IMG/VR virus record: IMGVR_UViG_3300025296_000029
Span: 1 to 45,052 of that record
DNA from: a virus
Lineage: Duplodnaviria > Caudoviricetes
DNA length: 45,052 nt
Reading direction: 5' to 3' (one strand)
Shown here: piece by piece, positions 7,858-29,592 of the stretch
Numbering within the stretch: position 1 is the stretch's first letter
How the letters are laid out: every line of letters starts with the position of its first letter
Translations under genes and position numbers: made by a program
Notes under the pieces: model-generated
Databases searched by the model: none
What the model was told of the DNA's origin: nothing
What the model saw: the letters and a program-made list of their open reading frames with translations, nothing else

Positions 7858-8403
7858 ATGCCAACAGACGAAAATACGAACTCTCTAATGCCTCTCATGC
7901 CTGAGCTCCAATGGGATCCCTCTATAGGATATGGAAAAGGATTACAATTACTTAAGTATGATGTAGCTTTAGAAGATTATCAAGAACAAAAACTTTATGA
8001 AAGGGAACTGCTATTAGCGGAGAAGAAAGCTAGGGAAGAATCTGAAAGCAGTTCATTATGGTCTACTCTAGGTTCAATAGCTGGAGCAGGAATTGGTTTA
8101 TTTGCAACAAAATCATTGAAAGGTGCAGCAGTAGGGTCTACAATAGGTGGTGAAGTAGGGAAATGGGGACAAAACATATTTGTTGGGAGACATTATGATC
8201 CAGAAGATTATGCTTTAAGTACTGATGTGGGTAGGTTTGATGTAAAACAGAAGTATGAAATTGAACGGATAAACCAACAGTTTGCAGCGGCAGCAGAAGC
8301 ACAGTACTGGAAAGATTGGGCTGGTACAGGAAAATCATTAGCTACTCTTGGTTTTCTAAAGGGAGATACAGGAATAGAGTGGCTTGATGAATTCCTTACT
8401 TGA
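7858..8403 (+). CDS. Putative ejection (internal virion) protein with glycine-zipper
   Basis: GSIAGAGIG...GAAVGSTIGG zipper; position after the tail genes. Confidence 0.55.
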   Translation: MPTDENTNSLMPLMPELQWDPSIGYGKGLQLLKYDVALEDYQEQKLYERELLLAEKKAREESESSSLWSTLGSIAGAGIGLFATKSLKGAAVGSTIGGEVGKWGQNIFVGRHYDPEDYALSTDVGRFDVKQKYEIERINQQFAAAAEAQYWKDWAGTGKSLATLGFLKGDTGIEWLDEFLT

Positions 8404-8414
8404 TGAATTGCTTA
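8383..8414 (+). repeat. 16-bp tandem duplication (cttgatgaattcctta / cttgatgaattgctta)
   Basis: Two adjacent copies with one mismatch, spanning the stop codon at 8401-8403. Confidence 0.85.
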
Positions 8415-8459
8415 CTGGTACTCCAGAAACAACAGTTTAAGGGAGAAAAAGGATAGATT

Positions 8460-9341
8460 ATGCCACAGTGTAGTGATTATGGAGAAGGATGGGCAGGTGA
8501 ATATCCTAATTGTACATATCAAACACCTGGTTTTACGGGGAGTGTTGAAAGTCTCGGATATGGAGGATTACTTCCTACAGATATTGAAGGAAGACCATAT
8601 GAAGACTATTTTGATCCTTATGATCCTACTCAACAACAGATGGCTGAGACAGTTGCTGGGACAAAAGTTGGTGCTGCAGAGAGTGCTTGGTCTTTGCAAC
8701 AAGAACAATTAGGTGAAGCTGCTGCATTGAAAACAGGACAATTAGGAAAAACTTGGGGATTACAAAGAGGTCAGCTTGGATGGGGAGCAGGAATGGGGGT
8801 TAGCGGAGCAAGAAGAGCTGGTATAGGTGCAAAAAGAAAGAGTGAATTTGCATTTTCTGGAACAGCAGAAGAAATGCAAAGAACTGCTGAAGCTGATGTT
8901 ATGACAAAATATAGGGGAGGTATAAGAGCAGGAGAAACAGCGTACCAACAAGCTTTAAGAACGACAGAAACTGGTTTGCAACAAGCTTTAAGAACTGGGC
9001 AGTTAGGCTTGGAACAGGAGATAACAGATATATTTCAGCAATTGGGACAAGATGTATTAGGATTTCAGCAAGATTGGCAAGGAGGTCAACAACAGACATA
9101 TTTTAATCTTCTTGGTCTAGGTTTAGACTGGGGAGATGCTGGAGGAGGGCCTGTATATGATGATCCAAATTGTTTTCAAAATTGTATAAATGGAGGTGCA
9201 TCAGAAGATTATTGTGAAGTGAGTTGTGGAAATCCTGCTCCTTCTGATCCTCAAACCTGTGCTGAACAAGGTTTGGTAGAATGTACTGATCCGAATGCTA
9301 ATAATTATGGTTTATGTGGACCTTGTGATTATGGCGAATAA
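8460..9341 (+). CDS. Putative ejection protein, Gln/Gly-rich helical core with Cys-containing ends
   Basis: 11-residue periodicity (GQLG..., QQALRT x2); position in the ejection block. Confidence 0.55.
   Translation: MPQCSDYGEGWAGEYPNCTYQTPGFTGSVESLGYGGLLPTDIEGRPYEDYFDPYDPTQQQMAETVAGTKVGAAESAWSLQQEQLGEAAALKTGQLGKTWGLQRGQLGWGAGMGVSGARRAGIGAKRKSEFAFSGTAEEMQRTAEADVMTKYRGGIRAGETAYQQALRTTETGLQQALRTGQLGLEQEITDIFQQLGQDVLGFQQDWQGGQQQTYFNLLGLGLDWGDAGGGPVYDDPNCFQNCINGGASEDYCEVSCGNPAPSDPQTCAEQGLVECTDPNANNYGLCGPCDYGE
8946..8995 (+). repeat. 17-bp direct repeat caacaagctttaagaac (33-bp period, coding)
   Basis: Exact copies at 8946-8962 and 8979-8995. Confidence 0.85.
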
Positions 9342-9510
9342 AGGATTAGGAGATACAGTATCCAATGTCATTAAGAAAGTTTCTGGTGGCAGGGTAAAGG
9401 AATGTGGAGGCTGTAGCAAAAGACGTGAGTGGCTGAATGATAAGGTATCATATACTAGACGTAATGCTTTAAATGCAATTGATAAGATTCAGAATGGAAA
9501 TATAAGATAA
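9331..9510 (+). CDS. Small phage protein with GLGD...CGGC..RR..LN motif
   Basis: Start taken at MANKGLGD, overlapping the upstream stop. Confidence 0.6.
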   Translation: MANKGLGDTVSNVIKKVSGGRVKECGGCSKRREWLNDKVSYTRRNALNAIDKIQNGNIR

Positions 9511-11267
9511 TGGCTTGGAAAGCAAGACAGCCTGAAATAGATTATTCAGCTGCAGATGCTCTACGTGAAGTATCATTATTTATAGTAGAGATGTATGGGG
9601 CGAAATTAGATAGGGAAGAGGGAGATAGAGCTCATCACCTAAATATTCTTGCAGATGAATTAAGAACTGCTAAAACTATTTTAAGAAATGAAGAGAATGC
9701 ATATGACGCTGCGAAGCTAGAGCATGAATCTCGTTTTGGAAAGCTTAAAGAAGAAGATTATACAAGTCAGAGTAGACCTGTAACTGATGATGTATATAAA
9801 TGGTATGAGTCTAGGATAGAGGATAAAGAAGGTGCAATTCAACATTATAAGGGAAAAACTCAAAAAATGTTGGAAGAAATAAATTTTATTAATAGAGTAC
9901 AGACTGGATTAAACACTGTAAGTACAAAACTTGGTCCAAGCCCAATTTGGTTGGACCCTGAAGATGTTACTCCAGTAGCTCTTGCTCCTCAGCTTGTAAC
10001 AGGTACACCAGAAGAAATTGCAGAAAAACAAAAGCTGATAGGAGCTTTTTTTGAAGAACGGCCTGAAGTAGTATCTCCAGGAGCACTTGAAGTGATAAAT
10101 CTTCTTAAAGCAGAGGCTATAGCTAAAGCAGAAGGGCGAGATTGGATTATAGATGAACGTAAATATCAAAAAGATAAACGTGAGGAGATCGAAAAGGATA
10201 AAATACTAGCAAGTGATTTAGCGTTAAATCCATTTGTATCAAGTATAAAGGCTATTGCTGGTGGGGATTATAACGATGAAAAAATGATGGATCTGATACT
10301 TGATATAGGAACTGCACATGGTCAAAAAATAGGAGATATGTTATGTCCTGGCTGTACAACACAAAAACAGTATGATATGGTTTTAGCAACTTATAATACT
10401 ATGGCAAGCTTTGCACAAAAAGGAACTCCAAATGATATTACAGGATTAGGTAGACTTGTAGATAATTTGACAAAACAGTATGAAGAGTCACCTGGGAAAG
10501 TTGGTGATCTCACAACAGAAAAAGGATTTTTTGCAAGCTGGGTTTATAATGTGTTTAATATTAATATGGAAACGATCGATAAAATAGAATTAGAAGGATA
10601 CAATCCTATAACTAAAGAAGTCACAAAGCATCAAATGAGTGATATGACTCCTGAAAAGTTGATAATGGTTGAGTTTGAAAATTCAGGCTTGAGCAAAAAT
10701 GAATATTTTGAGAAACGAGGTAGAAAGATTTTCAAATTATTTAAACAGGTGTATGGAAAGAAAGAATCTGGAGCTGACCGAAGTGCTGGTGAATTAAAGA
10801 AGATGATAGAGGCTGCTTTTCCTAAAAAAAAAAGTGAAGATGAAGTAGCAATTCTTCGTGAGAAGTTAGTTAATATGGATTTTGAAATAGTTGATGTTAC
10901 TGCAGATACTGGTTGGTATAGTGTATTAGCACAGGGAGAAGGAAGGCTTAGATTAGTAAAACCATTGGCAGATAGGGTTAAAGAAGCAAAGAATATATTG
11001 GAAGGTAAAGGAATAAATCTTCAAATTGGAGATTCACTGGTAAGAATGGATGTTAAAGAGAAGCAATATCAAGAATGGTTAGCTGCTGGATCAAAAGGTG
11101 CCACAGTAGCACCTGCTCATAGATCATTTCATACAATAGGATTTGCTTTTGATTTAGACCGTGAAGATGGATCTATGAATAATCCAGAAATATTTGATGT
11201 TTTAAGAGATTTAGGATTAGTGCAAAGTGATACAGAATGGTGGCACTGGTCGCTAGAAGAAGTATAA
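9510..11267 (+). CDS. Internal virion protein with C-terminal M15 (VanY-like) peptidoglycan peptidase
   Basis: R....Q...VAP..RSFH..G.AFD...EWWHW motifs (SxH-x6-D and ExxH zinc ligands). Confidence 0.75.
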   Translation: MAWKARQPEIDYSAADALREVSLFIVEMYGAKLDREEGDRAHHLNILADELRTAKTILRNEENAYDAAKLEHESRFGKLKEEDYTSQSRPVTDDVYKWYESRIEDKEGAIQHYKGKTQKMLEEINFINRVQTGLNTVSTKLGPSPIWLDPEDVTPVALAPQLVTGTPEEIAEKQKLIGAFFEERPEVVSPGALEVINLLKAEAIAKAEGRDWIIDERKYQKDKREEIEKDKILASDLALNPFVSSIKAIAGGDYNDEKMMDLILDIGTAHGQKIGDMLCPGCTTQKQYDMVLATYNTMASFAQKGTPNDITGLGRLVDNLTKQYEESPGKVGDLTTEKGFFASWVYNVFNINMETIDKIELEGYNPITKEVTKHQMSDMTPEKLIMVEFENSGLSKNEYFEKRGRKIFKLFKQVYGKKESGADRSAGELKKMIEAAFPKKKSEDEVAILREKLVNMDFEIVDVTADTGWYSVLAQGEGRLRLVKPLADRVKEAKNILEGKGINLQIGDSLVRMDVKEKQYQEWLAAGSKGATVAPAHRSFHTIGFAFDLDREDGSMNNPEIFDVLRDLGLVQSDTEWWHWSLEEV

Positions 11268-11279
11268 TAGGAGTTAAAA

Positions 11280-12386
11280 ATGGCAAATGATAAGAAGAAA
11301 GATGAAGGAGTTCCAGATGAATGGTTTTTTGATCCTGACAGTGTATTAGCACTAGAGTCTTTATTAAAACTTGATCCTAATGCAGGTGCAATAGACTCAT
11401 TAGAAAATCTTGGGGGGGCAGGAATAGTAAGAACTCCTCCTCCAGCAAGTAATGTTGTAGGGAATCTTCCTCTTGCATATGAAAAAAGTTTGGGATTTAG
11501 GGAGAAAATTGAAGATATAGAGGTTGATCAGGGTGTAATTGATAAAATAGCTCCAGCATTATACATAGGTGCATATGAATTAGGAAAAAAAATTGTAGGA
11601 AGAGATTGGAGATGGCCTAAGGGGTGGAGCCCTAAAATAAGAGGAGCTGGTAAGCAATTGGTTGCTTATAATTTAGCTTTACAAGCTAGTGATTTGGTAG
11701 GAAGTTATGTGGATGATTGGAATAAAGCACATCCAGGTATGAAGTTAAAGCCATTACCTGGTCAAATTGCTGCTGGGGTTGGTGCAGTCGGAACATATAA
11801 ATTTGCTTCAAAATTTGCCTGGACTATTATGAATAATGTTAAAACAGGCATGGCTGCTGAAGCAATGCCTGCTGTATTGCTTGAGGCTAAAAATAAATTA
11901 ACTGAAAAAGTTGTAAAGCAATATGGAATTAATCAACCAGAAATAATAAAGCGAGCAGATAAAGTTGGTAGAGAAGCAACAGAGAAAGCAGCAAAAGATG
12001 TTGCAAATGTAGTTAAAGAGCGTCTTGGAAAAGATGCAACTAAGAGATGGGATGATATAACTAGACAGCTTATTAAGCCAAGAGTAGCTACAAGGGTAGG
12101 TAAATATTTAGCAAAGTTCGCTCCTAAAATAGCAACTAGGTTAGCTGTAAGTGCAACTGCAACAGTAATTCCTGAGGGTTTTAGTACCTTTTTTGGAGTA
12201 CTTGGTATAGGGTGGACTGCTTATGATATATTTAATCTTATGGAATCAATGCCTGATTCTTCTACTTTATATAACTTAATATTTGAAGATGCTCCAGAAC
12301 AAACTGCTGAAGATATGCTTATGAATGAAATGACAGTTTCAGATAGTATTTTTGTTTCTGGAGAACAGCAAAGGATGAAAGAGTAG
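11280..12386 (+). CDS. Putative ejection protein with hydrophobic segments
   Basis: AGGAG RBS; Ala/Gly-rich amphipathic helices, no Cys; context. Confidence 0.55.
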   Translation: MANDKKKDEGVPDEWFFDPDSVLALESLLKLDPNAGAIDSLENLGGAGIVRTPPPASNVVGNLPLAYEKSLGFREKIEDIEVDQGVIDKIAPALYIGAYELGKKIVGRDWRWPKGWSPKIRGAGKQLVAYNLALQASDLVGSYVDDWNKAHPGMKLKPLPGQIAAGVGAVGTYKFASKFAWTIMNNVKTGMAAEAMPAVLLEAKNKLTEKVVKQYGINQPEIIKRADKVGREATEKAAKDVANVVKERLGKDATKRWDDITRQLIKPRVATRVGKYLAKFAPKIATRLAVSATATVIPEGFSTFFGVLGIGWTAYDIFNLMESMPDSSTLYNLIFEDAPEQTAEDMLMNEMTVSDSIFVSGEQQRMKE

Positions 12387-15300
12387 ATGCCCGATCCCAA
12401 TGGTGGAATATCCATTGAAGAGTATCTTAAATATTTAGAGCAGCAAAACGCTAGAAATTTAAGTGCTACTTCTGATACAGGTACTGTACCTTCAGTTTTA
12501 GGAGATGTTCCTTCTGTAGATGTTGATCCTACAGCTCAAGGATGGACTGCACGTAGAAAAAGACTTGGACTTGAGGTAGTAGATGAAGTATCAAGTGATA
12601 ATGCTGCTCTTGACTTTTTGGGTTCTTTAGCTTGGGGTGGTGTTCATGGTATTACTTGGGGAACTTCTGAATTTGTAGAGAAAGCTAAATCCTGGGATGA
12701 AATGAATGACTGGGAAAAGGCTGGTTGGGTTACTGGTGAAGGTCTTTCATTGTTTACTCCATTCGTTGGTCCATTTGCTTTGTTAGGCAAAGGTGGTCAG
12801 ATTGCTACTAGAGCTTTAAGGGGTAATAATTTTATAAGAAAGGCAGCATCTAATCTAGTAAAGGAAGAAGCAATTATTGCTAAAGGGCTTTTAGATCAAG
12901 CTAAAGCTAGAGGAGTTGTTTCTCCAGCTGTATCTAGATCTCTTGAAAGACAATTCGCAAAACAACTTCCCAAAGCCCTTAAAGACAAACATTCAATAGC
13001 AAGATTACGAGATCTTAATGCAGATGTAACAGCTGCTCGAACTGCTAGTGTAGGATTACGATCTCAAAGTGAAGATGTGATAGGTAAAGTGCTTGAGGGT
13101 GCAGGAGTTCCTATAAATGTAGCAGCTCAGAGAAAATTGGCTAAAAGTTTTGTAGAGGAATTAGGCAAGGGCAGATATGTAAATGATATAGGTGAGTGGG
13201 TTACCAGATCATTTGGTGGAACAAATCCAGGAAGAATATCACAATATCTTGGTATGGCAGCTCAGGACTTTCTTTATCTTGGATTACATGCTCTTGGCGT
13301 AGAAAAGATAGATTCTTTAGCACATAAGAGATCTGCTGATTATGCTGATATACCTATGAGTACTACTGTTATGTCATTAGGCTTTCCGCTTATAAGAGGT
13401 ATAGGAAGAGGTGGTCGTGAGTCTCTTACTCGTGGTATTACATCTTATGCCCAAAGATATAAAAAGATTAACTATAATAAGATAAGTGAGATGCCAGGTG
13501 GTGATGCTACTGCAAGAGAATTATTAAAAAGTAATGTTAAGGGAGCTAATATAAATATAATTAATTCTTCGGAACATGGACAAAAGACTTGGACAGTTTT
13601 TGGTAAGTCTTATATGGGTAAGCAGGATATACTACATCAAGCAGATACAATGCCATTAGAACATGTAGTTGGACTTCTGAATAAGATGAGACTCTCAGTT
13701 TCGCAAAGCCTTGTAAAAAGATGGAATAGTAATTACTGGGGAGATCTTTTAGCATCTACACCTCGTATGGGTACAGGTATTTTATTCATGAATTACGGTG
13801 CATTTCAAAGTGGTGCATTTAAGAATATGAGTCCTCAGGAATTATCTTCTCACTTATTTATGGCAGCATTTATGACTAAAGGTAAGGGTGCCTGGGATCA
13901 TGCTGGTAAAAGAGGTTATCTATCAAGTGAGTATGGGGAGATGAACCGAGCATTAGAATTTCTTCAGACAGATCATAAACAAATGGATGCAACTATTTCT
14001 ACCATGAAAATTAGGAATATGATTGATAAGCATGGTGTTGTTCATGGGAATAATCCAATTGCTGATGAAATTGTAAATGTATTTGATAGTGTTATTGAAG
14101 GTGAACGTATTGCCTGGAGAAATGATGGGGAATTTATTTCATCGACAAAGTATGCGAAAGTTCAGGAATTACTTAGTGCATATAATGCAATAAAGAGGAT
14201 GAAGGATAAAAGCTTTACTCATGTAACTATTGATGATATGAATACTCAAGCATTGGATATGATTAAAAGAGATCTTGGGGTAGTAAAGATAAGGGATAAG
14301 TCAGTTGATGATATATTAAAAGATGATCTTCGAGAAGAGTTAACAGAAGAAACCAAGAAAGAGATAATTTCTGATGAGTATGGTATACTTGGGTTGCTCT
14401 CTGAAAGATTTGGGATACCTTTTAGTATTGTTCCTGTTCCTGAAGGTACACCTTTAAAAGGATCTGCAAGACTGATTAAGACACCAGAGGATGGGAATAA
14501 TTATCCTAATATACATGAATATAATAATTTGATAGTAAAATATGGCTCTTTATTGAATATTGATATAATTGATAAACCTGCACTTGCTACTAAGCTGGCA
14601 AAAGATAGAAATATGGAAGTAAGAGATTATGATAATGCTTTGGGAGATGTGACACATGAATACATGGTTAATATGGAAGGCAGATATCTAAATCATAATT
14701 TATATTTAGAATTTGGTGATAACATATTTCTTCAAGCCCTTCATGATATTAATGCTAGCCAAGCAAAATCTGATATATATAAAGTTGTTTCTAATGTTGA
14801 AACTGATAAACAGAATGTTATTACGTTAAGAGAAGCTCTTGTTCATGTTTTTGGTCAGAAGGGTAAGTTTTCTGAGAATATATATGACAATGAGGTTGAT
14901 AAAAAGGTTGGAGAAGAGTTACTTAGTGATGCAAAAATATCTGAAAATTTGTTAATTATACAGCCAGTGTATGATTTAATGAAGAGCTTATCAAATATAG
15001 GTAAAACCAGATCACCGAAACTTAATATAAAATCAGGTGATGTTCAGGAAGTTGCTGACAAAGTAGGAGACATGGTTAATAGACTCCCTGGTGACTGGAA
15101 ACCTCCAAATCTATATATTAGAGGATTGGAGGAATTTCAATCTAGAATATTTACTGGCGGTAATAGATTATCTTATACTGCATTTCAGAGAGCTAAAGAT
15201 GATGGTCTTATTCGTATGGATTTTGAGGGAGGAGTGAGAAAAATAATATTTCCTAGTGAAAATGCTATTGATAATGGACTTCCTGGAGATCCAGTATCCG

Positions 15301-18300
15301 CAAGAGCTGTTAAGGAAGCAGTTAGAGGAGTGTATGATTTGTTTAATCCTCAGATGGTAGATAGAGCTCATCATGTTCCATTTGAAGCTGATTTGCTTAA
15401 GTGGATTGGTATTCATCAAGAGGTTACACATAGCAAGGTTAAAGATTTTGTAGAAAATATAAATGATACACTTCGTAATCTTAGTAAAGATAGTATGGTG
15501 GTAACACAGATAGCATCTTTGAGAAAATTATCTGATGAAATAAGAAGTGAGATGGTCAGCCCTAAGAAGGTACTTGATGCTGACAAAATAGATAAAGCTC
15601 TTGCAGAAGCAAAGCTTATACATGAGACATTAATAGCAGAAAAAAATATCAGTGTAGAGGCCAGTAAAAAATTAGATGGTCTTATTACTGCTCTTGAATT
15701 AGGTATAGCAGAAAGTAAGGATCTTCCTTCTAGAACTTTTAGTGAAGAAAATTATGGTAAAATGATTGAAACGTTTGATGAGTTGATTCAGTTTGAGATA
15801 GAAGCAGATCATGTCCAAAAGAGAGAGCTTTCCAGATTTCTTATTAAACTTGAGAATCATATTACACAAAAAGATCCAAACATATCTTATACTGATTCAA
15901 AAATGTTGCTTGAAAAATTAACTGCAGATTTTCATGGTCTTTTGGGTAACAGGAAATCAGCTGAAGTACCCTTGCAGGAATTGATTGATGAGTTTAACAA
16001 TACTGGTAATTGGAGGGATGCACGAACTGTTATTGATGCACTTGTGAAAACTGCAGGTAGATTTAATGCACATCATGAAGCTTATAATGATATAGCAGCT
16101 AAAATGGTAAATGAAATCCAGGGTGAAAAGCTAAATACTGAAAGACCTGTAAATTATCAGGAATTATTATTTAAATATCCATCAATACAGGATCCTAATA
16201 ACCCTAATGCTGTAAGCAATAGGTTTGTGTCAGATATATCAGATGCATTTGATCCAGCAAAACCGAAAATAACTGCTCCAGATGTATTTGAAGACTATAT
16301 CTATAGTGATATAAGAAAGAAGTATTCTAATTCTGGTGAGCAGGCAGTAAAAATAGAGGAGTTTAATACTGCTGAAGCATTGCCTTTGCTGCAAAATGTT
16401 TTTGGCCAGGTTCTTAGAAAAGTTTTTGTATTGGATCATGATAGATTGAATCTTGATGAAAAACCTATGCGTCATTCTCTTTCAACTATGGTTCTTGATA
16501 GGACAAATACAGTAGATCCTCAATTTAAGTATGAATATATACTTTTAAGTGGAAGTATAAAAATTGGTGATCGTACTATTAATATGGATGATTCTTATGA
16601 GATAGGTGGTGACTGGCTTAAAATGCAGAATTATATTGACAAAGCTATAACTGTTGATATGAGTGAGATGAAAGGTCTATATGAACAGTTAAGAAATGTG
16701 GATTATGTAATAGATATTCCAAGTTTAGGAAGTCTTAAACCAGTAAGTGAGAGCAGTAAAGTATATATGCGTTTAAGTCCCAAGATGCGAATTGTTTTTC
16801 CAAAGACAGAAGAGAATCTTGATTTACTTAATAGAGATTTTGATGATATATATACACAAAAGCTAACTGATTACACAGGACCTGAAAATAAAAAGCGTTT
16901 GCGTGCTTTTAAAAAAGCTTTTAAGAATTATTTTAATACTACTGATCAGGATAATGAAATTTTAAGATTAAAGATGATGTTCGTTCATTTTAATAGAACT
17001 ATGGGTCCTCAGTTTGATGATATGATGAATAAAATGGATGTTGATAGGGGGGAGATAGAGTTTAATAGTTTTAAAAGAGGTTTGCTATCTGATGGTGGTA
17101 CGACAACTCATTTGACAAGGCAGGCATTGGAATGGTCTAGAGATAATAATTCTGATCCTTCTGTAAGAACTAAGGCTCAAAAACTATTAGATGATGGAAT
17201 AAAGATTGGTGTTGTAAATGATGAGCCAGCAAATAAAGCAGATGATCATTTTTTTAGTAATAAAAAGATAGTTATAAAACAGTTGAGTGATAGAGTTGCA
17301 AATCTTGTGACTATTGCTGGAAGGGATACACAAGAATCAAAGATAGTGGATAGTTTTGTTCAAGATATTACTGAGGGAACATATACCAGTCTTAACTCTT
17401 TCTTTTTAGATGGAGGCAAGTTTTCTAGTATTCCTTTCAGTCAATTAATACGATCAGTAAAAGGTGGTGGTGACTGGAATGGTATGAAAACTATTATTAT
17501 GGATAATGATATGCTTGGTAAAGGATTCACTGTGTATAATCCAGAGGTAGCTTCTGTATTAACTAATCTAGGTGTTGATCTTTTGGTTGGTGAGAGTGTT
17601 GCTAAGACATTAAATCTAAATAGAGCTCAAGCATTTACTATTGATCCAGCCAGAAGTCTTGAGAGAGGGTGGGAAGCTGATCTTTCTTACATGGATGAAT
17701 CTAATTTTATGAGTATTCCATATAAGAATTTTGGTATATCATTTACTACGCACTCTGATCCTGGTGTTAACTATTCATCATCTATGTTCGATTTTCAAAG
17801 TACACGTCATCTTCGACAAGCAAAACGACTGTATAAGATAGATGAGATTATACAAAAGATGGGTACAATTAATAATAATAAAGATTTTGCTAATGGAGAT
17901 TTATTAAGAATTTTATATAAGATAAGGCAAGAAGAGACTGGTCAGCAGTTAACGACGGATAGTTATACTTTAACTGAAACACTTCTTGAATATGGTGGAA
18001 GGGAATCCAATCCTTTGTTACAAAAAGATCTGGAAAGGTTACTTCAAAGTGATTTTTATAAGATTCTTTCAAGTAGGCCAACACGGCACGGAGAAGAGGG
18101 AATTGCCGCTGTTGATGTAGATAATACTCTTAGTAATCCTGTGTATGCTCAGTTTGAAAATCTTAGAAATAACAAAATTGCTAATAGTGTTTATCAGTAT
18201 GGCGGTGGTTCTATTACTCGTGCATTGGCTAACCAATTAATCAGTAGAGATTCAAAAACAGTAGCTGATATGCGGGATATTTCTTTTATAGCAAGAGATA

Positions 18301-21218
18301 AGGATACAGGTTTAGATATAATTTTCTCTTATAGTGATAAGGGTGTTTGGGAAAAATATAGTCCATTTCTTGAAGCTCAAAAAGAAGCAAAAACTTATGC
18401 AGGTGCAGGTGTGAGGGGATTAGCAAAGGATGAATGGATTAAAGTAAGTGAAAAGTCATATAAGGAAATTGAATCTGTATTAAATCAATTGAATAAACTG
18501 ACTCATTCAATGAAGAATGTTAAGTATAACGATTTGATAAGATTATTGGATATAAATGAATATCATCCACAAAATTGGAATGTGTTTTCAAAGAGTAAAA
18601 TGATAAGAGAAGATATTAAAGTAGGTCTTGGAAAAACTTTTATAAAATTAGCAGATAAATATAAGATACAGTTAGGAATGTCTGTCAATGCTATTCCTAA
18701 GGTGATGAAGGATCAGCCTTTTATGCGTATTGAAAAAGTTCTTGATACAAGTCTTAATGGGTTGGCAACTATCAATACATTCGATTTGCGTGTAACTTTG
18801 CAAAGAGATCATGATGGAGATCATATATACAAATATTTAAAGATACCTATATCCATGCTTAGAGATTATGTTGATGATATGGGAGATATACGAGATTATA
18901 CTCTTATTCAAGATTCTGAGTATACCCAAGGAATAAATATGTTTGGGTTTAAGGGCGGTGTTGCTGGGAAAGATATTTCTTCTATAGGATTTGATAAGGT
19001 AGCTCATGATATAGCTAAAAAAGATAGAATTGTATCTAGTGTAATTTCAAGGAAAGGAACCTTGAGTTATCTTTTAAATTCTGAATTAAAGTTGGATGAT
19101 AACCTTTTTGTATCTGAAGTGTTTAATAATAAGAATGTAAATCTAGCAGTGTCAAAAGCATTGGATGTATTTCAAAGGGGAGGGGAAATATTTCAGAGTT
19201 CTTTGGATAAATGGAAAAAAACCCCAAAGATCGCTAGAAATATTGAAGATATTGAGGACTATTTTATTTATGGTTTATATCCATCAGATCTTAGTAAACC
19301 AAGTGTAAAACACAGTACAGAAAGTTTTTTACAATCTGGATTTGGTATAAAGGATAAATTTGAAAGGGATATGTTCAGGATTATGCATAGAACTCTTAGT
19401 AAAGCAAGAGTTATGGATAATGATGTATATGATGCTGCAGGACGAAGACAGCCTACCACTAGTGAATTACGTAGAGCAAGAACTAATATTAACTCGTTTT
19501 TTGATAATCCAAATAGATATTTAATAATGGGTTTACTTGGAGATGCGAGGAGGATGAGGAAAAAGAAAAATTACGATGGAGCAAGCAAACAGATTGATAA
19601 TGTGATTGGTTTTTTCTATAGGAATGTTTCGGTTAGTTCATCAAGATATCCTAAGATATATTCTGATTTAGAGAAAGGATATATACCATCAGGATTAGAA
19701 AGAAGATTTACTGTAGATAAAACTCTTGGAATTAAGAGTAGTATGAGTGGACATGTTTTGGATGAAGTCATAAGAAATCCTATTTTTTATGAGAGGGACA
19801 ATAAAGGTGAATCAACTAAAAATAGAACCATGTTCCAACATTATAATAACTTGAGAAATAAGCTAGAAATTATAATGTCTTATGGAGATGTAACACCTGA
19901 AAGAATTGATGAAATGATTTTAACAGACAGTGCATTTACAGAAATAGTTAATGGACAGTCTGTATTTAAAGCTAATCTTAGTGGTATAATAAGGTTTGTT
20001 GCTAATAGTCAGCATGCGAATTCAGTAGGAAATTTGAGGCTTTTGAAGAATGAAACTTTTAAAGATTTAAATAAAATAGAAAGAGCTGAAGATAGAATTA
20101 CTGTAATCCAGAAAGTTATTGATGTGTTGGATCGCCAAATGGCTAGAGATGCTATACTTCGTAAAGCTCAAGACTTAAAACTTTTTAAGATAAATCCTCC
20201 TAAAGATGATATAAATTGGGAATACAGAGATTTTAAGTTGAATGGTAATTTGTATAGAATTAAAGGAACAGTATCAAAAGACGATTTGGATCCTACAACA
20301 TCTATGGGGTCGCTTGAATATATAGGGTCAATAAGAGATGGACGTAAACAAAGAGTACGCAGAGGATATACTTATATTGTTGATAAGAGACCTCCCAGGT
20401 TTGTAACTGTTGATGATCCAGAAGTAAGATGGAATAGAGCTTTTGCACAGGCAACAGGAGTTGGTACACATAGATCAAGTGATATTGATCCTTCTCGTTA
20501 TCATTACGATAATGAACCTCTTGGTTTGAATAGACTTTTGTCTGCTGTAGATGCTTTAAGAAGAGGTGTAAGCGATTCTTATAGCAGAGCACATGAAGCA
20601 GCAGATAAACAGCCAATTGATAGAAATGATATTTATTATTATAATTCTGTTATGACTGATAGATTGATAGGAAAGTTTTTTAAAGATTTTAGTACTCCAG
20701 ATAATTTTGAAGGTCTTTTAAAGTATTTGATCCAGCCACAGATACAAAGGAATATGTATGTAAAAGAAGGCACTGAAGAAATGCCTTACTTTAAGATGAA
20801 TACTCATCTTATTCAATCTGTATTTAATTGGATGAGAAGACCAGCAGTTGGAGGTCAACCAAGTAATGCAGAAAGGCATGGATTTGATCCAAGAACATCG
20901 ATAGAAAGTATTATTAAAGATACGAATCATTGGTATGATCATACAACTGGTCAGTCAGAATTGAAAACTCAGCAGTATAATAGGATGAGGATGGCAGGAC
21001 GTGAAGATTGGAGTAGATTTAGAATGTCTACTGGTGATATTTTAATGAGTGATTGGTATGTCAATCCAGTATTGAGCAATTATGCCAGAGGTTTTATATT
21101 GGGAAGAGGAGATATTACCAGGATGAAGGATAATACTGGAAAACCAAGTTATTTTTATGATTATACAAAAAGTGGACCCCCTGATAAAAGAATGAAGAAA
21201 ATAATGGGATGCCGATAA
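12387..21218 (+). CDS. Giant internal virion protein, putative two-barrel (DPBB) virion RNA polymerase
   Basis: QRDHDGDH (nt 18801-18824) preceded by NAIPK...MRIEKVL...LATIN; upstream LDGG...LGKG...VDLLVGESVAK; downstream QSSLDKWK. Located in the ejection block. Confidence 0.7.
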   Translation: MPDPNGGISIEEYLKYLEQQNARNLSATSDTGTVPSVLGDVPSVDVDPTAQGWTARRKRLGLEVVDEVSSDNAALDFLGSLAWGGVHGITWGTSEFVEKAKSWDEMNDWEKAGWVTGEGLSLFTPFVGPFALLGKGGQIATRALRGNNFIRKAASNLVKEEAIIAKGLLDQAKARGVVSPAVSRSLERQFAKQLPKALKDKHSIARLRDLNADVTAARTASVGLRSQSEDVIGKVLEGAGVPINVAAQRKLAKSFVEELGKGRYVNDIGEWVTRSFGGTNPGRISQYLGMAAQDFLYLGLHALGVEKIDSLAHKRSADYADIPMSTTVMSLGFPLIRGIGRGGRESLTRGITSYAQRYKKINYNKISEMPGGDATARELLKSNVKGANINIINSSEHGQKTWTVFGKSYMGKQDILHQADTMPLEHVVGLLNKMRLSVSQSLVKRWNSNYWGDLLASTPRMGTGILFMNYGAFQSGAFKNMSPQELSSHLFMAAFMTKGKGAWDHAGKRGYLSSEYGEMNRALEFLQTDHKQMDATISTMKIRNMIDKHGVVHGNNPIADEIVNVFDSVIEGERIAWRNDGEFISSTKYAKVQELLSAYNAIKRMKDKSFTHVTIDDMNTQALDMIKRDLGVVKIRDKSVDDILKDDLREELTEETKKEIISDEYGILGLLSERFGIPFSIVPVPEGTPLKGSARLIKTPEDGNNYPNIHEYNNLIVKYGSLLNIDIIDKPALATKLAKDRNMEVRDYDNALGDVTHEYMVNMEGRYLNHNLYLEFGDNIFLQALHDINASQAKSDIYKVVSNVETDKQNVITLREALVHVFGQKGKFSENIYDNEVDKKVGEELLSDAKISENLLIIQPVYDLMKSLSNIGKTRSPKLNIKSGDVQEVADKVGDMVNRLPGDWKPPNLYIRGLEEFQSRIFTGGNRLSYTAFQRAKDDGLIRMDFEGGVRKIIFPSENAIDNGLPGDPVSARAVKEAVRGVYDLFNPQMVDRAHHVPFEADLLKWIGIHQEVTHSKVKDFVENINDTLRNLSKDSMVVTQIASLRKLSDEIRSEMVSPKKVLDADKIDKALAEAKLIHETLIAEKNISVEASKKLDGLITALELGIAESKDLPSRTFSEENYGKMIETFDELIQFEIEADHVQKRELSRFLIKLENHITQKDPNISYTDSKMLLEKLTADFHGLLGNRKSAEVPLQELIDEFNNTGNWRDARTVIDALVKTAGRFNAHHEAYNDIAAKMVNEIQGEKLNTERPVNYQELLFKYPSIQDPNNPNAVSNRFVSDISDAFDPAKPKITAPDVFEDYIYSDIRKKYSNSGEQAVKIEEFNTAEALPLLQNVFGQVLRKVFVLDHDRLNLDEKPMRHSLSTMVLDRTNTVDPQFKYEYILLSGSIKIGDRTINMDDSYEIGGDWLKMQNYIDKAITVDMSEMKGLYEQLRNVDYVIDIPSLGSLKPVSESSKVYMRLSPKMRIVFPKTEENLDLLNRDFDDIYTQKLTDYTGPENKKRLRAFKKAFKNYFNTTDQDNEILRLKMMFVHFNRTMGPQFDDMMNKMDVDRGEIEFNSFKRGLLSDGGTTTHLTRQALEWSRDNNSDPSVRTKAQKLLDDGIKIGVVNDEPANKADDHFFSNKKIVIKQLSDRVANLVTIAGRDTQESKIVDSFVQDITEGTYTSLNSFFLDGGKFSSIPFSQLIRSVKGGGDWNGMKTIIMDNDMLGKGFTVYNPEVASVLTNLGVDLLVGESVAKTLNLNRAQAFTIDPARSLERGWEADLSYMDESNFMSIPYKNFGISFTTHSDPGVNYSSSMFDFQSTRHLRQAKRLYKIDEIIQKMGTINNNKDFANGDLLRILYKIRQEETGQQLTTDSYTLTETLLEYGGRESNPLLQKDLERLLQSDFYKILSSRPTRHGEEGIAAVDVDNTLSNPVYAQFENLRNNKIANSVYQYGGGSITRALANQLISRDSKTVADMRDISFIARDKDTGLDIIFSYSDKGVWEKYSPFLEAQKEAKTYAGAGVRGLAKDEWIKVSEKSYKEIESVLNQLNKLTHSMKNVKYNDLIRLLDINEYHPQNWNVFSKSKMIREDIKVGLGKTFIKLADKYKIQLGMSVNAIPKVMKDQPFMRIEKVLDTSLNGLATINTFDLRVTLQRDHDGDHIYKYLKIPISMLRDYVDDMGDIRDYTLIQDSEYTQGINMFGFKGGVAGKDISSIGFDKVAHDIAKKDRIVSSVISRKGTLSYLLNSELKLDDNLFVSEVFNNKNVNLAVSKALDVFQRGGEIFQSSLDKWKKTPKIARNIEDIEDYFIYGLYPSDLSKPSVKHSTESFLQSGFGIKDKFERDMFRIMHRTLSKARVMDNDVYDAAGRRQPTTSELRRARTNINSFFDNPNRYLIMGLLGDARRMRKKKNYDGASKQIDNVIGFFYRNVSVSSSRYPKIYSDLEKGYIPSGLERRFTVDKTLGIKSSMSGHVLDEVIRNPIFYERDNKGESTKNRTMFQHYNNLRNKLEIIMSYGDVTPERIDEMILTDSAFTEIVNGQSVFKANLSGIIRFVANSQHANSVGNLRLLKNETFKDLNKIERAEDRITVIQKVIDVLDRQMARDAILRKAQDLKLFKINPPKDDINWEYRDFKLNGNLYRIKGTVSKDDLDPTTSMGSLEYIGSIRDGRKQRVRRGYTYIVDKRPPRFVTVDDPEVRWNRAFAQATGVGTHRSSDIDPSRYHYDNEPLGLNRLLSAVDALRRGVSDSYSRAHEAADKQPIDRNDIYYYNSVMTDRLIGKFFKDFSTPDNFEGLLKYLIQPQIQRNMYVKEGTEEMPYFKMNTHLIQSVFNWMRRPAVGGQPSNAERHGFDPRTSIESIIKDTNHWYDHTTGQSELKTQQYNRMRMAGREDWSRFRMSTGDILMSDWYVNPVLSNYARGFILGRGDITRMKDNTGKPSYFYDYTKSGPPDKRMKKIMGCR

Positions 21219-21323: not shown

Positions 21324-23981
21324 ATGTCAGCAGGTTGTAATGAAGTTCAGTCAGCAGGAGTAGATATTGATTATAATGCTGAAAGAATGAATGAGATATT
21401 CAAATATTGGGTTGATAAGCCTAATATCAGGAAAAGATATACGAGACCTGATGGAACATTTGAAAAAGAGATAGCTGAAAAAGGTTTAGAAAGCTATGTT
21501 TGGGATATACTTGATTATCCGTTTAAAGTAGAGCAGAATTTTACAGATAGACAGTTAAAAAGGATAAAAATAGCTATTGATGGACATGATAAAGATTTGA
21601 CAGGAAAGTTTAAGAATATAGCTGGAATTTTTGCTGTACCCAGGGGATTGGCAAGATTGGATCCATCATCTAATAAAATGTTAATGGACCTGGAAAGTGC
21701 TAAAAACTATGAACGTAATAAGATGAGTCAGGTGGAATTTTCCATTCAGGAGATCAAAGATAAAATATTATCTGCTCATATTGATGTAAATAAGGGAGGT
21801 AGGTTTTTTGGTAATAAGAGTTATAAGGAATATAGAAAGATAAGAGATAAGATTGTAAAAGCAAAAGATGAGCATGTAGAACAGGCTGTACATGATGCTG
21901 TTAAAGGATTTTATTTAACAGATAATGGAAAACTTCTTGGGGAATATCATACTCTAGTCAAGTTAGCAAGTAAAAATCCTGAAAACGGTAGATCTAAGAA
22001 TTCTGAACTTGATATTGCAATTCGTAATGGATACTTACATACAGATCCTGTTACAGATGTACAAAAAATGGTTAAGTATAATCCTAAAATAATACAGGCA
22101 GTAGAGATGTCTCATAATTTGCTGGATACTGTTGGTAGAGTTCATATTGCTTCTTTCCGAGAAATGGCTAATGTTATTGATTTTAAGTTTTCCAGGTTTA
22201 ATCCTGCAAGCAAGAATCTCATGGATAAATTAGAAGCTGCAGCTGTACGTATAGAGGGTAGGATGGAGAAAGGAGATTATTTCCCGAAGATTATATTGGA
22301 AACTATGTATGATATGAAAGTAAAGCTTGAGGATATGATAACAGAGTCCAATATAAGTACTGCAAATGAATATATGAATGAAATGATGGGCATTACAGAC
22401 GGATTGTTAGGTCAATTAAATCAAGCTCCTAAAAATACAAAAGCAGCAAGTAGAAATTTGAATCTTTTATGGGAATCTGATCCATATGTAATCCTGGAAA
22501 AATATTCAAGGGATGCTATTCAGTTTAATAAGAATATTCATATACAGAGGGCATATCTTGAAGCAATGAGAACTATTCCTAATGCAGATACTGCATTTTT
22601 AAAAGGAATGAAAAGTTTTATAATGGAAGAATATCTTGTAGCTAATACTGAAGGCAGAAGTCGTCCTAAATGGGTAAATGATTGGACACGTACCATAAAT
22701 AGTTTTCAGACAGGAAGAACTATGGGATTAAATATAACTGGTGGAATAAAAAATGCTGCCAGTGTGCTTCATTATTCATCCAGAGTAGGTCTCAAAGCTA
22801 TTAGAAATGCAAAAAAATCATATCAAAATTTGAAAATGAAAGAGATTGTTGATAGGGTAGAAAAAGAAGAAGGTTTTCTATTTACTCCAAGTGATAGTGC
22901 TATTATGATGGAGGGTATTGTAGGCAGGGATAAATATAGTAAGAATGAGCTTGTATTTAATGAACAAAAAGGTCAGTATTTTTATAAAGGTACTATGGTA
23001 AAAGATCTTGTTGAAAAGATGGGAGATAAAACACTTGGATTTTTATTATCATTTCATAGATGGACTGAAAATGGACAAAGGAAATTTATGTTCAGGACTT
23101 CATTTATTAATAAATTTCAGGAATTATCTGCTACCAATAAGTTATCTGAAAAAGACAATGAAAAATTTGCTAAGAATTATGCCTTAAAAATGGTAAATGG
23201 ATGGGCATATGAATATGCTCCATTTGCTAAAAATAAGTGGGTGCGAGGCAGTCAGAATATTAAGATAGTGGATGAAGTTGGAGAGTCTTACATAATTAGA
23301 AAAGGTCCCAAAGCTGCTGGAGCAGGTCTTAGTGAGGTAGCATTCCATTTAATGCATTATCCTATGAGCCTTCTAGAAACGCATGTAAGCCAGTTAAAGG
23401 CAGCAGGACAGTCAGCTAAGGCTGGTAACTGGGATTCACCCGAAATGCAGTATATGATGCGATATGCGGGTGTATTTGGGCTAATACAGCTAGGATCTAT
23501 TTTACTTAATGCTAATCTTAATAATATATTAGAAAATGAGACTCTTAATAGATTAGGTAGAATTGAAAGAGATCTGCTTGAATATGGAAATGAAGACAGA
23601 GCTACATTTGGATTACTATCTGAATTTACAGGTCCTACTGTAGGTCATTTAAAATATTTCAGTATAATGGGTGGTCTTGTGAAGCTTGATTCTCCTGCTA
23701 AAAAGATTCTTCTTGGCAATGTAGATTATACAGAAGATACTGAGGATAGCAGAAGATATACTGATTATCAATACAGTACAGAATATGGAAGAATAAAACA
23801 CAAAATATATCCTGCAATACGTGACGGACGGAGCATAGACTTAGCTAGGCATTACCTTGCTTGGTATCCAACTACTTGGATCAAGAAGGCTAGAGAACGC
23901 TTAGGATTGAAAAAACCAAGTAAGTCTAAATTTACTACAGAAGAAATATTATACTCCATTCGTCCTAGTGCTTTTCGTTAA
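21324..23981 (+). CDS. Large helical ejection / DNA-transfer protein
   Basis: DYFP...MGLNITGGIKN...ENGQR...YP pattern resembles C-terminal regions of podovirus ejectosome proteins; last gene of the + arm. Confidence 0.55.
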   Translation: MSAGCNEVQSAGVDIDYNAERMNEIFKYWVDKPNIRKRYTRPDGTFEKEIAEKGLESYVWDILDYPFKVEQNFTDRQLKRIKIAIDGHDKDLTGKFKNIAGIFAVPRGLARLDPSSNKMLMDLESAKNYERNKMSQVEFSIQEIKDKILSAHIDVNKGGRFFGNKSYKEYRKIRDKIVKAKDEHVEQAVHDAVKGFYLTDNGKLLGEYHTLVKLASKNPENGRSKNSELDIAIRNGYLHTDPVTDVQKMVKYNPKIIQAVEMSHNLLDTVGRVHIASFREMANVIDFKFSRFNPASKNLMDKLEAAAVRIEGRMEKGDYFPKIILETMYDMKVKLEDMITESNISTANEYMNEMMGITDGLLGQLNQAPKNTKAASRNLNLLWESDPYVILEKYSRDAIQFNKNIHIQRAYLEAMRTIPNADTAFLKGMKSFIMEEYLVANTEGRSRPKWVNDWTRTINSFQTGRTMGLNITGGIKNAASVLHYSSRVGLKAIRNAKKSYQNLKMKEIVDRVEKEEGFLFTPSDSAIMMEGIVGRDKYSKNELVFNEQKGQYFYKGTMVKDLVEKMGDKTLGFLLSFHRWTENGQRKFMFRTSFINKFQELSATNKLSEKDNEKFAKNYALKMVNGWAYEYAPFAKNKWVRGSQNIKIVDEVGESYIIRKGPKAAGAGLSEVAFHLMHYPMSLLETHVSQLKAAGQSAKAGNWDSPEMQYMMRYAGVFGLIQLGSILLNANLNNILENETLNRLGRIERDLLEYGNEDRATFGLLSEFTGPTVGHLKYFSIMGGLVKLDSPAKKILLGNVDYTEDTEDSRRYTDYQYSTEYGRIKHKIYPAIRDGRSIDLARHYLAWYPTTWIKKARERLGLKKPSKSKFTTEEILYSIRPSAFR

Positions 23982-24200: not shown

Positions 24201-24527
24201 CTATCTTTCTTTAGGCATTGAGGATACAAACTTATCATTTAACCAATCATCAAATCGCATGATAATAAGTGTTTCTCCTCTATCTTGTTTACATACCACA
24301 GCATCTACATGTACACTTGGAAGTAGAAATGATGCTAACTTCTTCCTGCATTTAGCTTGTATCTTTACTTTAGGTTCTTTACCAATAGTAAGATCTACTT
24401 CTTCATGAAAACCTAATGATTGACCATTGGATCCCCATGCACGTTCAGCAGTAAAACCTGCACTTTTTGCTTCATTTACTATTGCTCTTTCAAATCTGTT
24501 ACCTTTTGCTTTACTTGGATGTGGCAT
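24201..24527 (-). CDS. Holliday junction resolvase (Hjc-like PD-(D/E)XK)
   Basis: SKAKGNRFER...VDL...IQAK...LIIMRFDDW. Confidence 0.8.
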   Translation of the reverse strand: MPHPSKAKGNRFERAIVNEAKSAGFTAERAWGSNGQSLGFHEEVDLTIGKEPKVKIQAKCRKKLASFLLPSVHVDAVVCKQDRGETLIIMRFDDWLNDKFVSSMPKER

Positions 24528-24759
24528 TTAATGCTCCTTTTTTTGCTTCTCTTCTTCGTTTACGTTCTGCAGAACTTTTTTTACTTGCTTTCCATTCACC
24601 ATATTTTCTTATACAATATCCCTGGAATATCCACCAACCGTTTCCATTTTCCTCAAACAGTTTATTACGGTCTTTGATATATTTGGGATCATCTAGATCA
24701 CCTTTGTAAGGCCATTCTCTTGTAGAAAATGTTTTCCAGTCATAGTTCTTTCTAGCCAT
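24511..24759 (-). CDS. Hypothetical basic protein
   Basis: GGGAG RBS; overlaps neighbours. Confidence 0.6.
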   Translation of the reverse strand: MARKNYDWKTFSTREWPYKGDLDDPKYIKDRNKLFEENGNGWWIFQGYCIRKYGEWKASKKSSAERKRRREAKKGALNATSK

Positions 24760-25015
24760 CTAGCTCTTCTCCCTTTTTAAAGTAATCCACATCTTTTATT
24801 TCACCATCAACCATAAATACACCAGATACTTCTCTATTTGATTTTACTATTGAATACCCTAATGCAACATCATCATCGTATACTATTAAATCATTAGCTT
24901 TCTTGAACTTTTCCTCTTCAATTGCATCAGCATGTTCTTTACAAGAACAACAGATATCACTATCTGGATATCCGAGTTCTAAAAATAATGCTCCACAACA
25001 ATTAGTTACTTTCAT
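24752..25015 (-). CDS. Zinc-finger-containing hypothetical protein
   Basis: TNCCGA...ICCSCKEHA N-terminus; C-terminus similar to the ORF at 28094-28249. Confidence 0.65.
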   Translation of the reverse strand: MKVTNCCGALFLELGYPDSDICCSCKEHADAIEEEKFKKANDLIVYDDDVALGYSIVKSNREVSGVFMVDGEIKDVDYFKKGEELDG

Positions 25016-25047
25016 TGATTATGTCCTTCCATGACAAGTTTAAAATA

Positions 25048-25143
25048 TTAGGGCAGTCAGTTTGCCAACCCAGCAATTACGTGTACTTGCTAGCTTTCAT
25101 CAATAGAACAATTTTGTTATTGATTCAAGTTATACTGCCCTAA
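25048..25143 (-). ncRNA. Putative structured RNA element A (closed by 10-bp stem)
   Basis: ttagggcagt (25048-57) / actgccctaa (25134-43); internal hairpins atcaata/tattgat and ccagcaa/ttgctag (G-U on - strand). Confidence 0.55.
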
Positions 25144-25175
25144 AATTGTTATTTATTTATTTTTCCTTTCAATTA

Positions 25176-25350
25176 TTGAGGACTTGGCATAGAACGGTGG
25201 GTAAGACAAGGTAAGGATGTTCTATTAGCGTTAATTCGCTGTTTACTTGCCAAGGCTAGCCCTGTAACAATTATTACTACTGCAGCCTCACAACTGCCTT
25301 CAGGGGGTTCTAATGCTCGCTTTCGCATAACAAGGACACCAAGCCCTTAA
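25176..25350 (-). ncRNA. Putative structured RNA element B
   Basis: ttgaggacttgg (25176-87) / ccaagcccttaa (25339-50), with one G-U on the - strand and one mismatch; internal atagaac/gttctat, agcg/cgct, aggct/agcct and a GC-GAAA-GC loop. Confidence 0.5.
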
Positions 25351-25361
25351 TTCTTTAATTC

Positions 25362-25543
25362 TTTGGTTCAGCTAGCCCCTAACTCAGCAATCAGAGTTTT
25401 AACCGTATAGGATTAGTCCAACATTTAACAGGAAGTTAACCATATTACAAATTGCAAACCTGTTAATGTCCAGCATTTTTACAGAATTATGACAGTTATT
25501 ATAGTCAATTTTACCTTTTCTGCTCATCGGTGACTGAACCAAA
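25362..25543 (-). ncRNA. Putative structured RNA element C
   Basis: Perfect tttggttcag (25362-71) / ctgaaccaaa (25534-43); internal acatttaacagg/cctgttaatgt and aactc/gagtt hairpins. Strand taken from the neighbours. Confidence 0.55.
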
Positions 25544-25547
25544 ATTT

Positions 25548-25620
25548 ATGAGTATAGGTTCATTAGTTGTATTAGTAGGATTCTGACATCACGTAGTGTG
25601 AAAACCATACCTATACTCAT
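25548..25620 (-). ncRNA. Putative structured RNA element D
   Basis: Perfect 12-bp atgagtataggt (25548-59) / acctatactcat (25609-20). Strand taken from the neighbours. Confidence 0.5.
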
Positions 25621-25668
25621 TCGATAAACTGTAACTCGATCGCCAAATCTAACTATTCATGCTAACCA

Positions 25669-26725: not shown

Positions 26726-26727
26726 CC

Positions 26728-27027: not shown

Positions 27028-27028
27028 T

Positions 27029-27513: not shown

Positions 27514-27514
27514 T

Positions 27515-27974: not shown

Positions 27975-28013
27975 TTTTATCTCCTTTAAGTATTTTATTC
28001 TCAATCGTAATTA

Positions 28014-29035: not shown

Positions 29036-29037
29036 TA

Positions 29038-29193: not shown

Positions 29194-29217
29194 GATATTA
29201 TCCTTTTCTATATAAAC

Positions 29218-29587: not shown

Positions 29588-29592
29588 ACAGG

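Follow-up and report, generated by a model that had tools for sequence, protein, structure and literature searches.

Does a phage gene for a 2943-aa protein encode a polymerase that travels in the virus particle? This question is raised by an open reading frame (ORF; 12387-21218, plus strand, from the ORF map) of the window, i.e. the whole 45,052-nt stretch of DNA analyzed here (positions 1 to 45,052 of IMG/VR virus record IMGVR_UViG_3300025296_000029; Duplodnaviria, Caudoviricetes). An initial annotation had read its product, hereafter the giant protein, as a candidate for a divergent single-chain two-barrel virion RNA polymerase (RNAP) with a DHDGD active site, which would be injected to transcribe the early gene arm. 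Our analysis largely supports this interpretation, a DNA-dependent RNAP with two barrels in one chain being the likely identity of the giant protein. The ORF and each of the motifs quoted for it were recovered, namely LDGG (residues 1674-1677), LGKG (1710-1713) and VDLLVGESVAK (1730-1740) upstream, NAIPK (2101-2105), MRIEKVL (2113-2119) and LATIN (2126-2130) in the barrel segment, RDHDGDH (2140-2146; D2141, D2143 and D2145 lie within nt 18807-18821) and, downstream of DHDGD, QSSLDKWK (2270-2277). DHDGD (D2141-D2145) is the sole DxDxD motif of the giant protein. By composition, 0.10 DxDGD motifs are expected by chance; a single one is thus weak evidence, and conservation was needed for it to count.

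A word-indexed search yielded 24 homologues of 2218-3103 aa, and the DxDGD motif was present in 25 of 25 proteins when that of the window was included. Contig scans covered 49 viral and 69 metagenome loci, from which 105 regions of at least 850 aa were reduced to 56 below 88% identity; furthermore, 205 clusters at 50% identity (150 of them listed) matched the family profile among 1.84 billion proteins. Full-length members span 2819-3327 aa. Conservation was determined in an alignment of 82 rows with less than 65% identity, taken from the 130 segments that were long enough. K1701, K1712, K1740, G1939, P2104, D2109, N2130, Q2139, D2141, D2143, D2145 and D2274 were invariant in all 82 rows, D1675 was kept in 70 and D1612 in 73 of them, and K1563 was found in 45 of 45 full-length relatives. 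Conservation of DxDGD among homologues, on which the initial annotation had made its proposal depend, therefore held for all three Asp residues, and the three upstream Lys residues and the downstream Asp were equally invariant.

The family is large and unannotated. The names of members that were looked up said nothing beyond "hypothetical". Neither the giant protein nor 16 distant relatives in Pfam had a family match, which for the giant protein covered Pfam, PHROG and NCBIfam. Comparison of the giant protein with the PDB gave no match by sequence and only coiled-coil and designed-helix noise by profile; among phage records, tblastn of the giant protein against 50,697 of them found no match (147 for gp66 of the crAss-like Cellulophaga phage phi14:2 as query), and another search gave just a weak tape-measure match (E 0.07). 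A motif pattern scan of GTDB genomes produced 569 pattern matches, none of which was confirmed. We found no published account of the family, which may be included in the 23 RNAP family alignments of the P23-45 study or in the 2018 crAss-family paper. At least half of a 9.5-kb stretch of the window was present in 16 of 24 listed sequencing runs, all 16 marine or aquatic and many possibly from one campaign; no RNA run holding the stretch was among the runs listed.

The catalytic residues of the giant protein were then compared with those of known two-barrel enzymes. Their order is the same as in gp66 and in Neurospora QDE-1, a eukaryotic RNA-dependent RNA polymerase (RdRP). The crAss-like enzymes conserve D962, K1012, K1027, K1065, R1322-I-P1324, D1361/63/65 and D1612 (gp66 numbering), and the catalytic set of QDE-1 is D709, K743, K767, R962-X-P964, D1007/9/11 and D1116 (PMC9508822). 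The spacing from RxP to DxDxD is 39 residues in both the giant protein and gp66. As a reference, an alignment of 57 crAss-like RNAPs built around gp66 was used. Profile-profile comparison of the whole family with this reference reached 39.9 over the catalytic barrel as compared to at most 25.0 in 30 shuffles. A subfamily of 26 sequences with intact R/K-x-P (RxP subfamily) gave three colinear blocks with scores of 50.6, 42.6 and 25.3, whereas 20 shuffles did not exceed 20.1; the blocks comprise the catalytic barrel, the region from K1740 through the connector, and D1612 to D1675. The local blocks pair D1675 with gp66 D962 and K1740 with gp66 K1065. Block-wise global alignment to gp66 was successful for two of four blocks: the catalytic barrel scored 28.5 (shuffles at most 7.0), and the connector scored 14.3 against gp66 residues 1090-1310 (at most 5.3 in 15 shuffles). 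The motif order of cellular and crAss-like RNAPs claimed earlier is present with invariant anchors and a profile-profile link to gp66. At the level of sequence profiles, homology to gp66 is demonstrated in a transitive manner for the catalytic barrel and the connector, and the second barrel is predicted from invariant residues and weaker local blocks.

Several results weigh against a two-barrel polymerase that is injected. The window's own branch (56 sequences) scored 23.5 against the crAss RNAPs with shuffles at 22.5; this is not above the shuffles, and hence the link is transitive via the RxP subfamily. The comparison to gp66 that had been asked for succeeded for the two blocks given above and failed globally for the other two, i.e. 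the block of the second double-psi beta barrel (DPBB-B) and the bridge-helix/trigger-loop block, which scored 2.8 with shuffles up to 4.5, so that D2274 is assigned to the trigger loop by residue order. Full-length global hhalign of the family against the crAss RNAPs failed as well, and the hidden Markov model (HMM) of the family compared with gp66 as a single sequence did not rise above shuffles. PF05183 and PF00623 had no match in five genomes. In the Atlas, the viral RdRP family PF05183 was the nearest Pfam-named cluster, a lead only, as its score of 0.75 is below the threshold of 0.9. The presence of two double-psi barrels in the giant protein is itself deduced from sequence. Furthermore, no strong transmembrane segment was detected in the giant protein or its neighbors. 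The early arm showed no promoter motif that recurs, nor did any intergenic word recur within the genomes.

The initial annotation had pointed to Ala in place of the conserved RxP Arg and to His inside the catalytic motif as unusual. Ala was indeed found at this place (A2102), but the loss goes along with a new Arg, which stands at position 2140. His is no special feature and was dropped as such: among 136 distinct motifs, a set limited beforehand to those with R, A or G directly before DxDxD (position -1), position 2 was variable (N50, F34, Y21, H12, Q6, L5, W4, M3, G1), and position 4 was G112, V15, A6, T2 and I1. In 102 motifs of this set, Arg at -1 accompanied a non-basic residue in RxP; the other 34 had R/K in RxP and A/G at -1. 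Recounting without preselection reduced 355 sequences to 169 distinct stretches and, after removal of 8 uncallable fragments, to 161 callable motifs, with Arg at -1 and no basic RxP in 122 and R/K in RxP in 39. A basic residue at both sites or at neither occurred in 0 of these 161 motifs, a covariation whose weight is lessened because it reflects about three events and not 161. On a tree of the 82 rows (quick search, unrooted, trait columns excluded), each trait changed twice and on the same branches. In addition, one crAss-like RNAP among 23 pattern matches carries Tyr in RxP and Lys before DFDVD, and this swapped enzyme matches the crAss profile with E 5e-131. The sequences thus suggest that the Arg swap occurred at least twice in the family and once in a crAss-like enzyme, i.e. 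in at least three events. RxP was presumably the ancestral state, because gp66, QDE-1 and beta-prime all have it.

In the beta-prime motif NADFDGD, we take Asn458 to be position -2 and Ala459 to be position -1; Q2139, invariant in 82 of 82 rows, and R2140 stand at these places. In E. coli RNAP, discrimination against 2'-dNTPs depends mainly on beta-prime Arg425, which like Asn458 touches the 2'-OH (bioRxiv 10.1101/2020.06.30.179606). Enzymes of this type retain the RxP Arg almost without exception. We infer that R2140 replaces the lost RxP guanidinium. A swap that is compensated in this way implies selection on the substrate pocket. It also amounts to a natural experiment on the residue that distinguishes nucleoside triphosphates (NTPs) from dNTPs, as the Arg was lost in at least three lineages, all of which gained a basic residue at one and the same alternative site.

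Packaging of the enzyme, the other part of the earlier claim, is likely in view of gene position and cysteine pattern. The giant gene follows the tail genes and precedes a gene encoding an 885-aa protein, where the strand flips. At 44 loci, the window included, the next ORF lies on the same strand and exceeds 300 aa, and in all 44 it encoded a homologue of the 885-aa protein; the remaining 12 of 56 loci were cut by the locus end or had a small intervening ORF. The giant protein contains one Cys (C2942) as compared to about 34 expected at the background rate of the window. Exactly one Cys, located in the last 7 residues, was found in 45 of 45 full-length giant relatives, and the 51 locus proteins whose 3' end is closed all show the same single C-terminal Cys. 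The partner mirrors this pattern with exactly one Cys in 41 of 41 full-length proteins, situated within the first 15 residues in 44 of 44. The proteins encoded directly upstream of the giant gene were free of Cys (46 loci, 23,038 residues in total). Cysteines of phi14:2 are located at 1797 only in gp67, at 3 and 2179 in gp66, and at 3 in gp65, and a C-terminal Cys was present in 50 of 58 crAss-like rows with a closed 3' end (78 rows in total).

Cys loss is a mark of N4-type ejection proteins (PMC11445570), and a disulfide between gp27 Cys1715 and gp26 Cys5 was seen in the cryo-electron microscopy map of packed ejection proteins of cyanopodophage A4 (PMC12002296). In the crAss001 structure, RNAP-related proteins belong to the capsid cargo, and the disulfides discussed are those of tail and vertex proteins (PMC10172136). 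We found no published account of terminal cysteines in crAss cargo; the rule of facing terminal cysteines is our own observation and no criterion taken from the literature. By analogy to A4, a disulfide between C2942 and C5 of the 885-aa protein is likely, and so is packing of the giant protein in the phage head and its ejection tied to the 885-aa protein, as judged from the sequences. The 885-aa protein lies near a viral cluster bearing LPD39 in the Atlas (0.97; the family is found on 28% of members), LPD39 being a domain of unknown function (PMC5512222), and it showed no sequence similarity to any deposited phage or PDB chain. The single facing cysteines offer a simple handle on the threading of 300-kDa enzymes through a phage tail.

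These results can be combined in a mechanism which we regard as quite probable: late synthesis, disulfide-linked packing with the 885-aa partner, ejection, and Mg-dependent RNA synthesis on the early arm. The giant protein would be made late, in keeping with its observed position at the end of the structural arm, and packed as cargo, with C2942 bonded to C5 as in A4 gp27-gp26. It would pass the tail and the envelope partly unfolded, and the loss of other cysteines may avoid wrong periplasmic disulfides. D2141, D2143 and D2145, whose conservation was observed, would by homology bind Mg, and D1675, K1701, K1712 and K1740 of the other barrel would hold the second metal, the NTP and the RNA. R2140 may then supply from the catalytic loop the ribose-selecting charge that beta-prime Arg425 and QDE-1 R962 provide, with Q2139 beside it in place of beta-prime Asn458. 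By analogy to phi14:2, the host polymerase might read the later genes.

Other explanations must be weighed. The giant protein could be an ejection protein with an unrelated Asp metal site, or a barrel relic with a structural or DNA-pulling function, and make no mRNA; such a reading is in line with the lack of any library match and with a second barrel backed by motifs and weak local blocks. We consider it unlikely, as the expected catalytic residues are all invariant over about 20% pairwise identity, the compensated Arg swap implies substrate-pocket selection, and alignment of the catalytic barrel and of the connector to gp66 scores higher than the controls. A protein that does polymerize might instead have changed its sugar choice and accept dNTPs, acting as a DNA polymerase or primer maker like PolD, which has the same fold. 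Arg425 is the chief barrier to 2'-dNTPs in E. coli RNAP, DNA polymerases of family A, B or C were found in none of five genomes (four rated complete), and the primase-helicase that relatives possess is missing from the window. Yet this is very unlikely: a basic residue is always restored at -1, Q2139 retains an amide in the place of Asn458, relatives with intact RxP share size and terminal Cys (two also share the neighbor), and small phages often use the host replicase. Described features of PolD are a His steric gate and DP2 (PMC7708050).

A mixed form, in which an injected two-barrel enzyme, chained to its partner by a disulfide and with its Arg moved, no longer excludes dNTPs and both transcribes and primes or copies DNA in phages lacking a DNA polymerase gene, is to be judged just as improbable as the changed sugar choice, while its milder form, with a moved Arg keeping RNA specificity, is the likely one and coincides with the mechanism proposed above. 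Finally, a non-virion polymerase could stay in the cell for middle or late transcription, and enzymes of this type, YonO and P23-45 gp64, do have the same fold. In every informative locus, the gene lies where the structural arm ends; this position and the near-total loss of Cys, typical of ejected proteins, leave very little room for it.

Among known systems, the injected RNAP proposed here resembles phi14:2 gp66 (bioRxiv 10.1101/2020.03.07.982082; PDB 6VR4) in its single chain, the order D...K...K...K...xP...DxDxD...D, the alignable catalytic barrel and connector, the location of the gene, which is found where the late arm ends and faces the opposite arm, and cysteines at facing termini. It differs in length (2943 aa as compared to 2180 aa), in genome size (55-62 kb, not 100 kb), in Gly instead of Ile/Val at motif position 4 of the crAss-like enzymes, in Q-R instead of G-S before the motif, in Ala instead of the RxP Arg, and in one Cys link instead of two; HExxH is absent from 45 giant proteins, and terminase, portal and capsid of phi14:2 are not detectably like those of the window's relatives. 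Judged from sequence, the giant protein would work like gp66, but its motif, its sequence and the virion markers place it outside the crAss family. QDE-1 and the eukaryotic RdRPs of PF05183 (PMC9508822) share the ordered catalytic set and the nearest Pfam-named Atlas cluster, whereas the giant protein has no HMM match, no RxP Arg and an amide instead of Gly at the Asn458 position, and is a predicted phage cargo protein about three times the core size.

Thermus phage P23-45 gp96 (bioRxiv 10.1101/2022.12.01.518664, a study which compares 23 RNAP families) is likewise a particle-borne two-barrel RNAP with canonical DxDGD outside Crassvirales. It is a siphovirus tape-measure fusion accompanied by a second RNAP (gp64), whereas podovirus-type cargo and no second RNAP were seen here. 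A4 gp27/gp26 (PMC12002296) correspond in the C-terminal Cys1715 of a large ejection protein bonded to Cys5, here C2942 and C5. The 885-aa protein, by contrast, is similar in sequence to no deposited phage or PDB chain, and the part of the A4 report cited mentions no polymerase in gp27. N4-type virion RNAPs are T7-like single-subunit polymerases, whereas the giant protein has the DxDGD two-barrel signature. Coliphage N4 gp50 and DEV gp71 (PMC11445570) are nevertheless similar as giant, Cys-depleted, ejected polymerases encoded behind smaller ejection genes. If the proposed reading is true, injected two-barrel RNAPs would not be confined to crAss-like phages and P23-45 but would also occur in small marine podoviruses, which form a large group that is unannotated.

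Table 1. Features of the window and, where a locus is named, of related phages (positions in nt)
Feature	Position	Strand	Details
Giant protein	12387..21218	+	2943 aa; two-barrel RNAP in a single chain and ejected cargo protein (both predicted)
Predicted beta-like barrel (DPBB-B) and preceding helix	17073..17606	+	K1563, D1612, D1675-G1676, K1701, K1712, K1740
Predicted inter-barrel connector (about residues 1760-1960)	17664..18266	+	profile alignment to gp66 1090-1310
N-A-I-P 2101-2104, RxP loop with Ala replacing the sugar-sensing Arg	18687..18698	+	aligns to gp66 R1322-I-P1324
Predicted catalytic Mg-binding loop Q2139-R2140-D2141-H-D2143-G-D2145 with likely relocated Arg R2140	18801..18821	+	conservation, covariation
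Q2270...D2274, candidate trigger-loop Asp (QDE-1 D1116, gp66 D1612)	19194..19217	+	residue order
C2942, single Cys of the giant protein	21210..21212	+	disulfide with C5 of the 885-aa partner predicted
885-aa partner, last gene of the late arm, predicted ejection protein	21324..23981	+	single Cys is C5
Four genes (181, 293, 585, 368 aa), candidate small ejection proteins	7858..12386	+	order conserved in close relatives
Opposite-strand small-gene arm, predicted early arm and predicted template	24201..37815	-	ORF map, GC-skew switch
Conserved non-coding element heading the early arm	37850..37960	-	A-run, short hairpin with T-run, T-rich tail
ThiF/JAB locus	L139:18971-19624	-	
ThiF/JAB locus	L143:11983-12873	-	
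ThiF/JAB locus	L148:13108-13962	+	

The record of the window is linear, has a completeness rating of 82% and ends within a P22-like portal gene; four relatives rated complete have 55,990-62,092 nt. Genes of the relatives encode a P22-like portal (P22_portal), an SU10-type capsid (SU10_MCP), an adaptor, an archaeo-eukaryotic primase-helicase, ThiF and JAB. The phage, which is marine and uncultured, is a 55-62-kb podovirus. The best listed matches of the relatives' large terminase (TerL), portal and capsid were unrelated podoviruses at 22-34% identity, and no crassvirus was found among the 30 listed of 400 TerL matches, 17 portal and 18 capsid matches. Family profiles, each small with 3-4 sequences, gave E 0.019 for TerL, E 0.063 for portal and no match for the capsid gene against phi14:2. 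Membership in Crassvirales as defined in PMC7886860 was ruled out by markers, genome size and gene set, the order being characterized by DnaG primase, an SNF2 helicase block and genomes near 90-100 kb (PMC7886860).

The four-gene block listed in Table 1 lies between the block of a 1011-aa tail gene and the giant gene. The 181-aa protein had a Gly-zipper match below the cut-off. The 293-aa protein (8460-9341, plus strand) is rich in Cys at its ends (10 Cys) and in Gln, Gly and Ala in between, its neighbors being cysteine-poor. A C-terminal D,D-peptidase-like domain was observed in the 585-aa protein (9510-11267, plus strand; weak match) and in a 160-aa protein (44048-44530, plus strand; VanY match); the 585-aa protein could open peptidoglycan during ejection.

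Early-arm genes include nuclease, annealing and resolvase-like genes, with a PD-(D/E)XK/Cas4-like match. The primase-helicase fusion, DnaB, ThiF and JAB of the relatives were absent from the early arm of the window by tblastn, although this arm looks fully covered. The fusion, an archaeo-eukaryotic primase of about 580-600 aa in total with a DnaB-like helicase (e.g. L139:15223-17028, minus strand), is common in relatives, and some have a plain DnaB-like gene in its place. In the relatives' early arm, a ThiF/E1-like gene adjoins a JAB-domain gene, which constitutes a ubiquitin-like modification pair.

The non-coding element was present in 6 of 7 genomes and had 55 conserved columns as compared to 14-31 in 20 shuffles, a score inflated by anchoring of the segments on the motif; its candidate functions are those of an early promoter, a packaging site or an origin. 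The repeats of the minus arm are Shine-Dalgarno (SD) regions and were rejected as early promoters. The search for early promoters revealed 85 sigma-70-like sites as compared to 71.7 +/- 8.9 in shuffles.

SD-like sites preceded 19 of 25 starts in the minus arm and 11 of 23 in the plus arm, as compared to 13.5% of random 15-mers. The strong SD use noted earlier is therefore real, being well above random 15-mers in both arms; Bacteroidota make little use of SD sites. Three genome-bin contigs with related TerL contained only phage-type genes in the stretches read. Their three bin labels (Dehalococcoidia, Methanosarcinales and Poseidoniales) disagree and were not taken as evidence for the host.

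A further entry, G003 (L257-L262; 104,488 nt), carries the full set of genes for terminase, portal, capsid, giant protein and primase-helicase twice, and is probably composed of two related genomes joined in assembly; its second giant protein has 3026 aa, is of the RxP type and carries DYDVD. A very divergent giant protein of the RxP type was found in bin G006 (L266:8816-17908, minus strand; E 1e-33 to the family profile), in a phage whose terminase is 75% identical to that of the window, suggesting cargo-module exchange or fast divergence. Within the early arm, two long stretches contain no SD-led ORF (25016-25668 and 37042-37548, minus strand), and a strong terminator-like hairpin is located in one of them at 37542-37527. 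Between the small and large terminase genes, a Zn-ribbon fused to a calcineurin-like phosphoesterase is encoded (39126-40022, plus strand).

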